Positions 21,851-25,713 of a stretch of 25,713 bases of DNA are shown here, piece after piece. This DNA is from a virus. Lineage: Duplodnaviria > Heunggongvirae > Uroviricota > Caudoviricetes. Positions within the stretch are counted from its first letter, which is position 1; the number at the start of each line of letters is the position of its first letter. The stretch lies in the IMG/VR virus record IMGVR_UViG_3300029877_000014. One strand, 5' to 3'. Position numbers and translations under genes: made by a program. The notes under the pieces were generated by a model that saw only the letters and a program-made list of their open reading frames with translations, did no database searches and had not been told where the DNA came from.

Positions 21851-22065
21851 TATTCACCTCTCGCAGCCTTGCGCTTATCTTCTTTAATCTTGAAATAAAG
21901 GTTTGTCAGGTACGTCAGCAGGCCAAATACCAGACTACCCAGCACACCGATTGCAGCCCACTGTGACGGAGTTACTCTATCGAGCAACTGTAAAAACCAG
22001 TAGCCAGCACTGCCTGCGGAGGTGCCATAGGCGACACCCGTTGTTAACTTATCCATGGATTTCAT
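21850..22065 (-). CDS. S: Pinholin S with dual-start motif (71-aa antiholin / 68-aa holin)
   Basis: [28 protein letters not shown]... from the ATG at 22065 with RBS GAGGTGGGGG; Met1-Lys-Ser-Met4 dual start; two TM segments. The track's start at 22158 is an upstream extension. Confidence 0.8.
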
Positions 22066-22336
22066 AACCCCCACCTCGCAGATGCGGGCGCTGTGTAATG
22101 GAAACAAAAAATGGCCACCAGCGGCCCGTAAAAAACACCCCGTCAAAAGCACCGGCATCCGCAGATGCCCTTTGCGTGGCGTTATTTGATGCGCGCCAGA
22201 TGTGGCGCAAAGAAATGAAATAAGACTTATCGAAAATTAAGGTCAATTTGATGATTTAAACCACTTCTGAAGCTTAGTAGTATGAACATGTCCCCAGAAG
22301 GGGGCCAATACTTATTATTCTTCATGGACTTTGTCC

Positions 22337-22369
22337 CGCGGTCTTAATCCGACGACCGCGCTACTTTTT
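22337..22369 (+). terminator. Plus-strand hairpin CGCGGUC...GACCGCG followed by CUAC-UUUUU (weaker terminator-like unit R1)
   Basis: Preceded by the mini-palindrome GGACTTTGTCCC; read from sequence. The T-run is 4 nt away from the stem. Confidence 0.3.
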
Positions 22370-22406
22370 CACCCTCTCGCAAATTGCTATCTAAAGGACT
22401 TTGTCC

Positions 22407-22439
22407 CACGAGTATTCCAGGATGCTCGTGTCTTTTTTT
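22407..22439 (+). terminator. Plus-strand intrinsic terminator R2 (CACGAG...CUCGUG followed by U-CUUUUUUU)
   Basis: 6-bp GC-containing stem extendable by A-T/wobble pairs, followed by a run of seven T; also preceded by GGACTTTGTCCC. Confidence 0.5.
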
Positions 22440-22455
22440 GTCCTGAGGAAGGAAT

Positions 22456-22479
22456 AAAAAAAACCGCCAAATATGGCGG
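22456..22479 (-). terminator. Minus-strand intrinsic terminator (CCGCCA-UAUU-UGGCGG followed by UUUUUUUU) downstream of the tRNA genes
   Basis: Perfect 6-bp stem with 4-nt loop and eight T on the minus strand; lies back to back with plus-strand terminator R2. Confidence 0.55.
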
Positions 22480-22839
22480 TTGGTCACTGCATGAGATAAA
22501 TCATTTTATTGTAATAAGAATCGAGGTGTCGGGTGCCTCCCGAAATATCCATCTCTACAACAGATATTGTGATTCCCCGCCAAACCACTATCTAAACCAC
22601 CCTCGCACTGAGGAACACCTCTGCGGTGCTTTTACAACACCAGAATGATGCATCACCGACCCTGCCAGGAAATACAAAATCTCCACCGATAATGCACCAT
22701 TCTGCTGCCGTAAAAAAATTAGCACTGTGACTACAACCGACCTCCAATCATAGTCAGAGAACGGATTGTCTTTTTAAAACAACCCACCCCACGTAATAAA
22801 AAATACGCCAGTGCCACGATACAATAAGGCTTGTTTCTC

Positions 22840-22914
<75 letters not shown>

Positions 22915-22917
22915 ATA

Positions 22918-22993
<76 letters not shown>

Positions 22994-23056
22994 ATTGGTT
23001 CTTCAGGGGAGCGATATCACCGAGCAAAGAAGAGTTCCCCCTCAGAACCGTTTTCG

Positions 23057-23084
23057 ATAATACGATTTAATATTCCAATCGCAA
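23057..23084 (-). promoter_or_regulatory. Candidate sigma70 promoter for the tRNA pair (-35 TTGCGA, 16-nt spacer, -10 TATTAT), with an AT-rich upstream tract
   Basis: Minus-strand hexamers read from sequence, about 60 nt upstream of the tRNA-Thr 5' end; 23101-23220 upstream is strongly AT-rich (UP-element-like). Identified by eye. Confidence 0.35.
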
Positions 23085-23230
23085 CAACACTTTGCGTCAA
23101 GTTATGTAAATTTATTTATATGTTTTTATTTTATGTGAATAATTCACTTTCACTTAAAATATATACAACAACATATAAATAAATTTATTTTGAAGGCGAT
23201 GATTAAATGTCGTTTCTGATATCACACCAC

Positions 23231-23260
23231 AGAAACAACAAAACCCGCTCGATGGCGGGT
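23231..23260 (-). terminator. Terminator-like hairpin (ACCCGCC-AUCGA-GCGGGUU followed by UUGUUGUUUCU) about 90 nt downstream of the Q stop; candidate tR'
   Basis: GC-rich stem and T-rich tail on the minus strand; position is consistent with the end of a short PR'-initiated transcript. Confidence 0.4.
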
Positions 23261-23346
23261 TCTATTAAAGTTTAATTGCGCTTGATTCGCCTCGCGATAC
23301 AGCTTTGCGAAGCGTAGCAAAATTGAAGCAGTTTATGCGTAAAAAA

Positions 23347-23889
23347 TCAAGCCGTTTTTTGAGCGAATGATTCTCGCATGGGAATGTATAGCGCATACTC
23401 AGCAACGGCCAACCAATTAGCAATTCGCTTTTCGCATGTGCTAAAACACCACTCTGGGTGTGCATCATTTAGCAATTCAGCCATTTTGCGTTTGGTCATC
23501 CCCCGCCCCTCATACCGTTGCCGAAGGACGCTAATCAATCCTGGATGCTCTGCCAGCACCTCACTTATGACCCGATCAATACATAACGCCTCTGCATCAG
23601 TACAATGCGCCAGCCAGCTCTTTTGCTTACCGTTAATCATATCCCGCAAAAAAGCCTCAAGTTCAGACTTGTTCAGACCTGCTTTTTTCATCCTCCGGAG
23701 CGCCTCGTTAATTGCCGTTTTTGTCAGCTTTTTAGAGGCCAACAACTGGTTGAACATATTCCCCGTCTTACCGCCGCCAATATACGACCAGCGCCCCCAC
23801 ATGCGCAGTTTTCCCTGAATCCAGACACTTTCCAGCGTGGTGAGACGAAGGTGTTCCCCGCTTTTGCCTGTATTTGTTGGGTAAATCAT
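23347..23889 (-). CDS. Q: Late-gene antitermination protein Q
   Basis: Start at ATG 23889 (MIYPTNTGKSGEHLRLTTLESVWIQGKLRMWGRW...) with ATGA overlap to the upstream gene; the track's start at 24009 is an upstream extension. Sits immediately before the tRNA/lysis region; Cys/His-containing C-terminal part. Confidence 0.7.
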   Translation of the reverse strand: MIYPTNTGKSGEHLRLTTLESVWIQGKLRMWGRWSYIGGGKTGNMFNQLLASKKLTKTAINEALRRMKKAGLNKSELEAFLRDMINGKQKSWLAHCTDAEALCIDRVISEVLAEHPGLISVLRQRYEGRGMTKRKMAELLNDAHPEWCFSTCEKRIANWLAVAEYALYIPMRESFAQKTA

Positions 23890-25188: not shown

Positions 25189-25497
25189 TTATACGGAAAC
25201 TGGCACACGAGCAGGCAATGGATAGTGAGCCCAGTTATTAGCATTTAAAGCTCTTACGCCATCAGCATAAACTTGTGTGTTTCCATCTAATGATTTTAAA
25301 GTTACTACAATAGTTACAGGTAAAGGCTCCATTAAGGCCGGTTCATTCGCTCTCAACGTTGTTTTAGCCTGAAGAGCCCAGTTACCCGAAGTAATTCCTT
25401 TATTAAATGCCTTGCGATGAATTTTTACTGGTGACCACTTTCCACCATGCTCAATTTGAGCTCTCTCATATCCAGATTGACCGTTTTCTCCTTCCAT
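25189..25497 (-). CDS. Hypothetical protein, about 102 aa, AT-rich gene
   Basis: ATG at 25497 with RBS AAGGAAAAG (the track's start at 25503 is GTG). The same frame stays open upstream to a TGA at 25660-25662 without any ATG/GTG/TTG, so the real start is uncertain. No recognisable motifs. Confidence 0.4.
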   Translation of the reverse strand: MEGENGQSGYERAQIEHGGKWSPVKIHRKAFNKGITSGNWALQAKTTLRANEPALMEPLPVTIVVTLKSLDGNTQVYADGVRALNANNWAHYPLPARVPVSV

Positions 25498-25713
25498 AGG
25501 CACTTTTCCTTTTATAGTATTATTCTCAATTAAGCCAAAACTTAGCTCTACGTTCGCGCGAACATATTCACTGCCGGCATTAGGGTTCAGTGGTGGTGCA
25601 TATGCAGCAGTAATGGCTTTGTTGAATAAATCGAACTTTTGCTGAGTTGAAGGATCAGATCACGCATCCTCCCGACAACACAGACCATTCCGTGGCAAAG
25701 CAAAAGTTCAGAA

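Follow-up and report, generated by a model that had tools for sequence, protein, structure and literature searches.

Phage lambda oop and paQ as well as P22 sar are short, terminator-ended antisense RNAs which are fully complementary to a phage operon transcript and overlap coding or ribosome-binding regions of defined targets (cII, Q and ant). Other prophage-encoded small RNAs (sRNAs) are located at the moron site of the late operon, and several of these (AsxR, AgvB and PasA-D) rewire host regulation in enterohemorrhagic and enteropathogenic Escherichia coli (EHEC and EPEC, respectively). For EHEC prophages, Tree et al. 2014 (PMC4104026) reported sRNA pairs which converge within a moron insertion site located downstream of PR'. 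AsxR and AgvB (EcOnc01-03) are 51-60 nucleotides (nt) long and combine a conserved 3' part of ~42 nt with a variable 5' part of 14-18 nt (PMC4104026). For PasA of EPEC E2348/69, the layout is given as '> < >' and the distance between its start and the start codon of the holin as 214 nt (Pearl Mizrahi et al. 2021, PMC8550237, table S6). The tandem terminators of PasA give rise to a major product of 85 nt and a minor one of 236 nt, and the EHEC homologs of PasA and PasC are EcOnc51/52 (PMC8550237; Zhu, Shabalina and Storz 2026 preprint, 10.64898/2026.05.13.724894). The present analysis concerns a stretch of 25,713 nt from a virus of the Caudoviricetes (IMG/VR record IMGVR_UViG_3300029877_000014), referred to as the window in the following, which represents a Rac-like lambdoid prophage of E. 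coli. Between positions 22222 and 22448 it contains, as a moron within the late-operon leader, a plus-strand cassette which is probably a transcribed, independent sRNA gene.

Organization of the plus-strand cassette

The cassette lies in a gene-free stretch, ~160-380 nt upstream of the holin start. A first-pass annotation, prepared from the letters of the window alone, had postulated a discrete plus-strand sRNA unit antisense to the late leader at this place. All elements it listed, from the promoter-like motif to terminator 2, are present at the coordinates given there, and the unit as such is supported by covariation of its stems, by the conservation of its promoter-like motif, by its presence or absence as a whole, by a middle region that is swapped in four versions, and by a paralog in E. 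coli K-12 with a mapped 3' end at the equivalent terminator. The elements are:

22222-22448, plus strand: whole cassette (moron) with promoter, sRNA body and tandem terminators; present or replaced as a unit
22255-22283, plus strand: sigma-70-type promoter-like motif with -35 element TTTAAA (22255-22260), 17-nt spacer and -10 element TAGTAT (22278-22283)
22290-22305, plus strand: 5' hairpin GUCCCC-AGAA-GGGGGC, starting 6-7 nt after the -10 hexamer
22306-22325, plus strand: unpaired, AU-rich variable region of 20 nt (CAAUACUUAUUAUUCUUCAU), candidate seed, single-stranded in the predicted minimum-energy and centroid structures
22326-22336, plus strand: mini-hairpin 1, GGAC-UUU-GUCC (GGACTTTGTCCC)
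22337-22369, plus strand: terminator 1, stem CGCGGUC/GACCGCG (22337-22360) with the conserved 10-nt loop UUAAUCCGAC, followed by CUAC and U5 (22365-22369)
22396-22406, plus strand: mini-hairpin 2, again GGAC-UUU-GUCC (GGACTTTGTCCC)
22407-22439, plus strand: terminator 2, identified by terminator scan, 10-bp (base pair) stem (22407-22430) with loop CCAG, followed by UC and U7 (22433-22439)

Transcription is predicted to start at ~22288-22290. An RNA ending at terminator 1 (~22369) should accordingly comprise ~80 nt, and terminator 2 is predicted to yield a read-through product of ~150 nt. The two copies of GGACTTTGTCCC, at 22326 and 22396, are spaced by 70 nt and open two repeat units (22326-22369 and 22396-22439), each consisting of mini-hairpin, GC stem and U-run, while a 26-nt spacer separates terminator 1 from the second mini-hairpin.

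Conserved RNA structure and strand assignment

Folding of both strands, as suggested in the first-pass annotation, favors the plus strand. For 22285-22445 (161 nt), a fold z of -3.85 was obtained on the plus strand, with none of 200 shuffles being as good, versus -1.38 on the minus strand. The 82-nt unit alone gave z = -3.37 on the plus strand, where the best structure accounts for 41% of the ensemble, and z = -2.04 on the minus strand.

Across ~130 related copies, with identities down to ~72%, all stems are maintained by compensatory changes. In unit 1 (31 distinct copies), 95.4% of the cells pair, compared to 91.9 +/- 0.5% in column shuffles and 41-54% in controls with slid partners; none of 500 shuffles reached the observed value, a count which overstates independence as the aligned sequences are related and separate compensatory events are few. 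Four pairs of this unit are changed on both sides, those of the 5' hairpin alternating between U-A and C-G and those of terminator 1 between C-G and U-A. The 5' hairpin pairs in 97% of its cells, with pair 9-18 being U-A in 17 and C-G in 12 sequences and pair 7-20 being U-A in 13 and U-G in 13. For terminator 1, C-G and U-A are both found at pair 59-72 (20 and 11 sequences, respectively) and at pair 60-71 (9 and 7). Mini-hairpin 1 is 100% paired in the 31 sequences and nearly invariant, and hence provides no covariation evidence in unit 1. Unit 2 (22 distinct copies) behaves alike, with 96.2% pairing against 86.4% in shuffles (0/500) and 22-46% in slid controls; the pairing and covariation scores of both units exceed all 500 shuffles and every slid control. 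Here as well, four pairs are changed on both sides, mini-hairpin 2 included, in which GGAC/GUCC alternates with UGGC/GCCA (pair 32-42: G-C in 12, U-A or U-G in 10; pair 34-40: A-U in 11, G-C in 10). In terminator 2, 95.5% of the cells pair and pairs 47-62 and 48-61 are changed on both sides.

Several features assign this structure to a strand. On the plus strand, nearly all copies have a U-run behind each of the two stems, whereas on the minus strand A-runs precede the stems. Likewise, G-U cells, which pair only in plus-strand RNA, outnumber A-C cells, which would be G-U on the minus strand (22 vs 9), and pair 49-60 of terminator 2, U-G in 12 of the 22 sequences, can form on the plus strand only. 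A function of GGACTTTGTCCC as a protein-binding DNA palindrome was considered as well; it is unlikely because unit 2, on covarying to UGGC/GCCA, keeps its pairing and not its sequence.

Conservation of the promoter-like motif

The candidate promoter at 22255-22283 had been rated weak in the first-pass annotation, and it is an 8/12 match, yet the motif TTTAAA-N17-TAnnnT is conserved in 51 of 53 distinct upstream sequences with a spacer of always 17 nt. The -10 element occurs as TAATAT (26), TAGTAT (21), TATGAT (3) or TATACT (1). The motif is also kept in those versions of the cassette that do not have the minus-strand open reading frame (ORF) discussed below.

Distribution and modular versions of the cassette

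The tested stretch is 100% identical to many E. coli chromosomes and to phage vB_EcoS-683R6. A 281-nt core has matches in 373 of 5426 complete E. coli genomes (~7%), at 72-100% identity and in up to 5 places per genome. These genomes derive from varied hosts and environments and many copies are >90% identical, that of the laboratory strain E. coli W, for instance, 98%. Further copies were collected from IMG/VR prophage contigs; of the instances from all sources, 136 extended far enough into the flanks to be usable. A genome-collection scan with the 15-mer GGACTTTGTCCCGCG gave, among the matches listed, mostly chance hits in unrelated phyla and is thus uninformative on the distribution outside E. 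coli. The genes next to the cassette vary: Q genes are of the DUF1133 type, of the 'antiterminator Q family' or in a methylase-adjacent layout, and the lysis cassettes consist of essD/rrrD or of holin1/holin2 with a GH108 or M15 endolysin. At the locus designated L297, the cassette is located directly between a tR'-like terminator, which it faces, and the holin, with no tRNAs, while in the L019 type it abuts a tRNA terminator.

At 95 loci, an anchor outside the cassette, in the minus-strand module next to it, served to judge presence or absence without bias toward the cassette. An exact 23-nt cassette pattern was found at 61 of these loci, and 29 distinct sequences are without it. Two of the latter, L133 and L149, still have variant copies; at most of the remaining pattern-less loci, ~227 bp are replaced by ~40 bp with one extra minus-strand terminator. 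Being present or absent between conserved flanks, the cassette is therefore a discrete insertion/deletion unit, a moron. In a further clade (L004, L044, L055 and L062), the stems of the terminators homologous to 22337-22439 contain mismatches and C-runs stand where the first U-run would be, and RefSeq annotates a 118-aa (amino acid) minus-strand ORF across the cassette region of L004.

Altogether four versions exist which have the promoter motif and the 3' module in common, while the sequence of the 5' stem and the unpaired middle are unrelated. The shared 3' module reads AUGGAC(U/C)UUGUCCC-CGCGG..-U(U/C)UAAUC(C/U)GA..-..CCGCG-U-run. Apart from the version in the window, these are the following, each with a hairpin of unrelated sequence at the place of the 5' hairpin:

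L133 version: stem CUCC/GGAG, middle AAUGUAAUUAAGUCAAACUUC
K-12/L011 version: stem GCUUU/AAAGC, middle GCGAAAUUCAACAACUCUUGGAAAUU
L297 version: stem CUUCCC/GGGAAG, middle UUAAAAGAGAGGAAAUUCUUUAAGUAUC

A covariance model, R1, built from 31 sequences of the window version plus L133, recovers the K-12, L011 and L297 copies with E-values of ~3e-10 to 1e-9. In the window itself, R1 detects a single full copy at 22286-22375 (113 bits).

A paralog in the E. coli core genome

The L011 version is not prophage-specific, as 5418 of 5426 E. coli genomes contain a match of >=95% identity to a 156-nt query. In K-12 MG1655, this paralog is situated in the 570-nt spacer between yodB and serU, 287 nt from serU, with its -35 element at 2,043,059 and the end of its U-run at 2,043,181 on the plus strand (L313 2560-2682, corresponding to NC_000913.3 ~2,043,059-2,043,181). 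RefSeq annotates nothing there. The homology to the window extends over ~22222-22372 of the latter. Exactly at plus-strand position 2,043,181, a Term-seq 3' end of class 'orphan' has been reported (Adams et al. 2021, eLife, PMC7815308, supplementary file 1). Its flanking sequences, AATTATGGACTTTGTCCCGCGGCTTTAATCTGACGGCCGCGTTCCTTTTTT before and GACTCAATTA after the mapped position, place the end on the last U of the homologous terminator. It is contained in one of the three condition sheets, which, judging from the order of the sheets, is probably that for lysogeny broth (LB) at an optical density (OD) of 2.0. At the K-12 paralog, transcripts of the proposed strand thus probably end in vivo at the conserved 3' module, although these may include read-through from yodB. 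A full-text literature search for the sequence motifs and the yodB/serU locus names yielded nothing relevant.

Open reading frames across the region

According to the first-pass annotation, no credible ORF exists in the region. This overlooked a 32-codon ORF on the minus strand, which was tested here and rejected as coding. The assertion of the annotation that every protein gene is on the minus strand applies to all annotated protein genes of the window with the single exception of a 41-aa 'hypothetical' ORF, which is judged spurious. The ORFs in question are:

22326-22228, minus strand: 32-codon ORF antisense to the sRNA, judged non-coding
22098-22223, plus strand: annotated 41-aa 'hypothetical protein' (RefSeq WP_001298832.1)
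22331-22648, plus strand: annotated 105-aa 'hypothetical protein' (GenBank URC09393.1)

The AUG of the 32-codon ORF lies opposite the 'CAU' of the unpaired region, behind a GGGA that belongs to the mini-palindrome. Length and stop of this ORF are the same in 91 of 117 instances, including copies that are ~25% diverged. Its variable sites number 18, 11 and 16 at codon positions 1, 2 and 3, i.e. there is no third-position excess, and in the other 26 instances it is frameshifted or truncated, often by 1-nt indels inside a hairpin whose stem stays nearly intact. Moreover, the ORF is absent from L133 (13 codons), K-12 and L297 (9 codons), where promoter, hairpin and terminators persist. A type I toxin-antitoxin system was rejected on the same grounds, since the 32-codon peptide has no transmembrane-length hydrophobic segment, no codon-position bias is seen and the ORF is broken or absent in the copies and versions named. 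A seven-codon micro-ORF on the plus strand, AUGGACUUUGUCCCGCGGUCUUAA, was dismissed as well, as ACG replaces AUG in 12 of 31 distinct alignment rows and a Shine-Dalgarno sequence is missing. Of the two annotated plus-strand ORFs, the 41-aa one lacks its start in homologs with the other holin type and the 105-aa one runs through three terminators. Neither frame is conserved, both being broken by 5-nt and 1-nt indels, and both ORFs are regarded as spurious.

Prophage setting of the cassette

From high to low coordinates, the late region comprises Q, a tR'-like terminator, tRNAs, a gene-free stretch of ~775 nt, the lysis genes, and the packaging, head and tail genes. The neighbors of the cassette are:

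23347-23889, minus strand: DUF1133 Q-type antiterminator
23267-23236, minus strand: tR'-like terminator
22993-22840, minus strand: tRNA-Thr and tRNA-Gly
22454-22481, minus strand: convergent intrinsic terminator, identified by terminator scan, 8-bp stem with 5 GC pairs and U8; conserved in all homologs
22065-21850, minus strand: holin essD, followed by lysozyme, spanin, trkG, packaging, head and tail genes

The minus-strand terminator (22481-22462 plus U8) is a neighbor of the cassette and lies outside of it, ending a conserved RNA module downstream of tRNA-Gly. This module (22455-22840, minus strand), conserved and apparently non-coding, contains a 29-bp imperfect hairpin with arms at 22630-22658 and 22687-22715, for which compensatory changes are found in homologs. 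Its only Rfam match, STnc100, is below threshold (22.9 bits, gathering 47). The module forms the convergent partner of the putative plus-strand sRNA and could be either an unclassified sRNA or a tRNA-trailer RNA. Directly downstream of Q (23232-23330, minus strand), the tR'-like terminator (13-bp stem, GAACCCGCCAUCGAGCGGGUUUUGUUGUUUCUGUGG) carries a GU-rich tail, and STnc370, OrzO-P and isrK give sub-threshold Rfam matches in this interval. The terminator probably marks a short PR'-tR' RNA of the kind of StxS in Stx phages. Just before the ribosome-binding site of the holin (22113-22169, minus strand), two more terminator-like hairpins are present on the late strand; the holin is thus guarded on its own strand by three intrinsic terminators, the one at 22462-22481 included. 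At the far end, a gene for an S8-family 'anti-phage peptidase IteS' is found just upstream of the Q region (25189-25713 and beyond, minus strand), while the potassium transporter gene trkG lies between the lysis and packaging genes. TrkG and IteS are cargo typical of Rac-like prophages.

Proposed mode of action

In the proposed mechanism, a host sigma-70 promoter at 22255-22283 would start transcription at ~22290 on the strand opposite the phage genes. Most transcripts would stop at terminator 1 (~22369, ~80 nt) and some would reach terminator 2 (~22439, ~150 nt), a split that is suggested by the structure and by the K-12 paralog. In the manner usual for base-pairing sRNAs, the resulting RNA would consist of a 5' hairpin followed by 20 AU-rich, unpaired nt, the mini-hairpin and a U-tailed terminator. 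Since the family members have promoter and 3' module in common but have exchanged the unpaired region and the sequence of the 5' stem, this RNA presumably acts mainly in trans by pairing with host or phage RNAs via its unpaired region. Over its full length, the prophage copy is also the complement of the Q-dependent late transcript, at ~160-370 nt ahead of the holin start. In the lysogen, the expected ends are 22462 for the minus-strand RNA and 22369 or 22439 for the sRNA, and the two RNAs would therefore not overlap. Upon induction, Q-modified polymerase would read through and generate complementary RNA, and only then could the sRNA meet the late transcript, with formation of a duplex, possible cleavage by RNase III, or head-on collision of polymerases as conceivable outcomes. 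An action in trans is favored because of the swapped middle and of the core copy without a partner, while the invariant position and orientation in phages would point to some additional cis role or merely to a favored insertion site. Confidence in any specific function of the RNA is much lower than in the existence of the sRNA gene, and modulation of lysis timing or regulation of host mRNAs, as put forward in the first-pass annotation, would be hypothetical roles. Sequence anatomy, covariation, cassette behavior, the kinship of the core-genome paralog and the mapped 3' end at its terminator are shown here, whereas the start site, expression of the prophage copy, any chaperone, any targets and any effect on lysis are inferred.

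Weighing of the evidence and alternative explanations

A number of observations weigh against an independent sRNA gene. The promoter of the window itself is weak, its 8/12 match falling below the scan threshold of 9/12, which is why the promoter scan missed the motif. For no member of the family is a mapped transcript start found, look-ups in the Cappable-seq supplement in both coordinate systems being empty. The 3' end in K-12 belongs to the 'orphan' class, which includes long 3' untranslated regions (UTRs), and lies 283 nt downstream of the co-directional yodB; for this reason it does not prove an independent promoter, and a long yodB 3' UTR might end here instead of an independent RNA. An Hfq-bound hub RNA is not supported either, as the listed rows of the EPEC Hfq RIL-seq table contain no yodB entry. 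Furthermore, the compensatory changes trace back to few independent events among closely related sequences, and the L004-type clade carries decayed versions of both plus-strand terminators, which means that its copies may be inactivated.

Among the explanations that dispense with an sRNA gene, a transcriptional insulator survives best, although it is unlikely. Here, the tandem plus-strand terminators would only block stray antisense transcription from the lysis side into the tRNA/late-leader region, and the RNA would be functionless. Such a role agrees with the density of terminator-like hairpins within 22113-22481 (three on the minus and two on the plus strand), with the strong minus-strand terminator at 22481-22462 facing terminator 2 at a distance of 15-20 nt, and with the extra minus-strand terminator which occupies the same slot at loci without the cassette. 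An insulator, however, has no need for a conserved promoter-like motif directly upstream whose spacing is fixed at 17 nt or for a conserved 5' hairpin, nor does it call for a middle that is swapped on a fixed scaffold, and the core-genome copy has no phage genes to insulate.

Distinctly improbable is the assumption of a neutral remnant, that is, host yodB-serU DNA (or the reverse) that was carried along by recombination with serU-integrating prophages and appears conserved only because it is young. The distance of the paralog to serU, a known lambdoid integration site, would fit this, as would the name of the LT-IIb phage with the cassette, which refers to serU, and the many copies that are >90% identical. 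However, copies down to ~72% identity keep all stems via compensatory changes, the four versions retain the scaffold with a replaced middle, which is not neutral decay, and the core copy is kept at >=95% identity in 5418 of 5426 genomes. Least credible of all, and very improbable, is a signal of the minus strand, either as processing or stability hairpins of the late leader or as the 32-codon ORF, with GGGA resembling a Shine-Dalgarno sequence, encoding a small late protein or else a type I toxin to which the sRNA would be the antitoxin: Watson-Crick stems do fold on either strand (compare the minus-strand 82-mer above) and ORF length and stop agree in 91 of 117 instances, but the ORF shows no coding signature, is broken in the other 26 and absent from three of the four versions, its peptide is unlike type I toxins in having no transmembrane-length hydrophobic segment, and on that strand A-runs precede the stems, no U-runs follow them, and U-G pairs become C-A mismatches.

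An independent sRNA gene thus remains the preferred reading. Beyond it, and only tentatively, the cassette can be viewed as part of a modular sRNA family with a fixed scaffold and a swapped pairing region, one member of which would have been domesticated in the core genome near the serU attachment site, while prophage members, lying antisense in the final terminator-guarded interval ahead of the holin, could reprogram host RNAs in the lysogen and, by pairing or colliding with the Q-dependent late transcript, restrain a leaky or premature expression of the holin. Swapping the pairing region while keeping the scaffold would be a clean natural example of sRNA specificity evolving by module exchange. 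In addition, the analysis points to a nearly universal, unannotated locus of K-12 (~2,043,059-2,043,181) with an existing Term-seq 3' end, which therefore can be tested at once in the best-studied bacterium. Should the antisense relation to the holin leader matter, lysis timing or the stability of the lysogen would be controlled at a new point.

Comparison with known small RNAs

The Rfam search proposed in the first-pass annotation left the plus-strand element unmatched in Rfam 15, both for the window at gathering threshold and for 22000-23400 at E-values up to 10, as well as for 14 related or comparison loci. A weak cluster of Rfam matches (STnc100, AgvB and isrK), far below gathering, falls on the neighboring minus-strand RNA or its terminator. 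AgvB and AsxR (RF02702, RF02703) have no match in the window at gathering threshold, and AsxR has none even at E-values up to 10; the only AgvB match (15.6 bits, gathering 56) is located at 22456-22517 on the minus strand, i.e. at the neighboring terminator.

In terms of arrangement, the cassette resembles AsxR/AgvB in that it is located downstream of a Q-dependent promoter and converges with a same-sense RNA ending at a facing terminator. The order of a convergent pair is found in the window, with Q, the tR'-like terminator, the tRNAs, the minus-strand module to 22462 and the plus-strand unit to 22439. Also shared are the combination of a conserved 3' part with a variable 5' part and, for AsxR, the antisense orientation to the late (stx2) transcript. 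In contrast to the 51-60 nt of AsxR/AgvB, however, products of ~80 and ~150 nt with a 5' hairpin are predicted here, and the conserved 3' module of ~45 nt is preceded by ~36 nt of hairpin plus variable region.

Like PasA, the cassette is encoded in a lambdoid prophage, in the interval that separates the holin from the last gene ahead of it, and is antisense to the late genes. The likeness extends to the distance from the holin, as the predicted start of the cassette RNA is ~225 nt from the essD start at 22065 compared to the 214 nt of PasA. Both also share the scheme of a short and a long product from tandem terminators, as predicted for the cassette. Homology to PasA, PasB, PasC or PasD was nevertheless rejected, since a BLAST search against PasA-D with word size 7 gave noise only (best E 0.14, 11-nt matches only) and R1 found no match in the PasA, PasB, PasC and PasD loci (L008 and L009 included). 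PasA further differs in being flanked by a sialate esterase gene, whereas the cassette is flanked by tRNAs and a non-coding module, and in its support by Northern and Hfq RIL-seq data, whereas the cassette RNA is a predicted one.

Unlike oop, paQ and sar, the cassette RNA overlaps only an untranslated leader and has a paralog without antisense partner. The cassette would add a sequence-unrelated family to the class of moron-site sRNAs, and, within the limits of the literature searched, it is treated here as a new sRNA family of a known kind, namely the antisense/convergent sRNAs at the late-operon moron site as represented by AsxR/AgvB and PasA/PasC.

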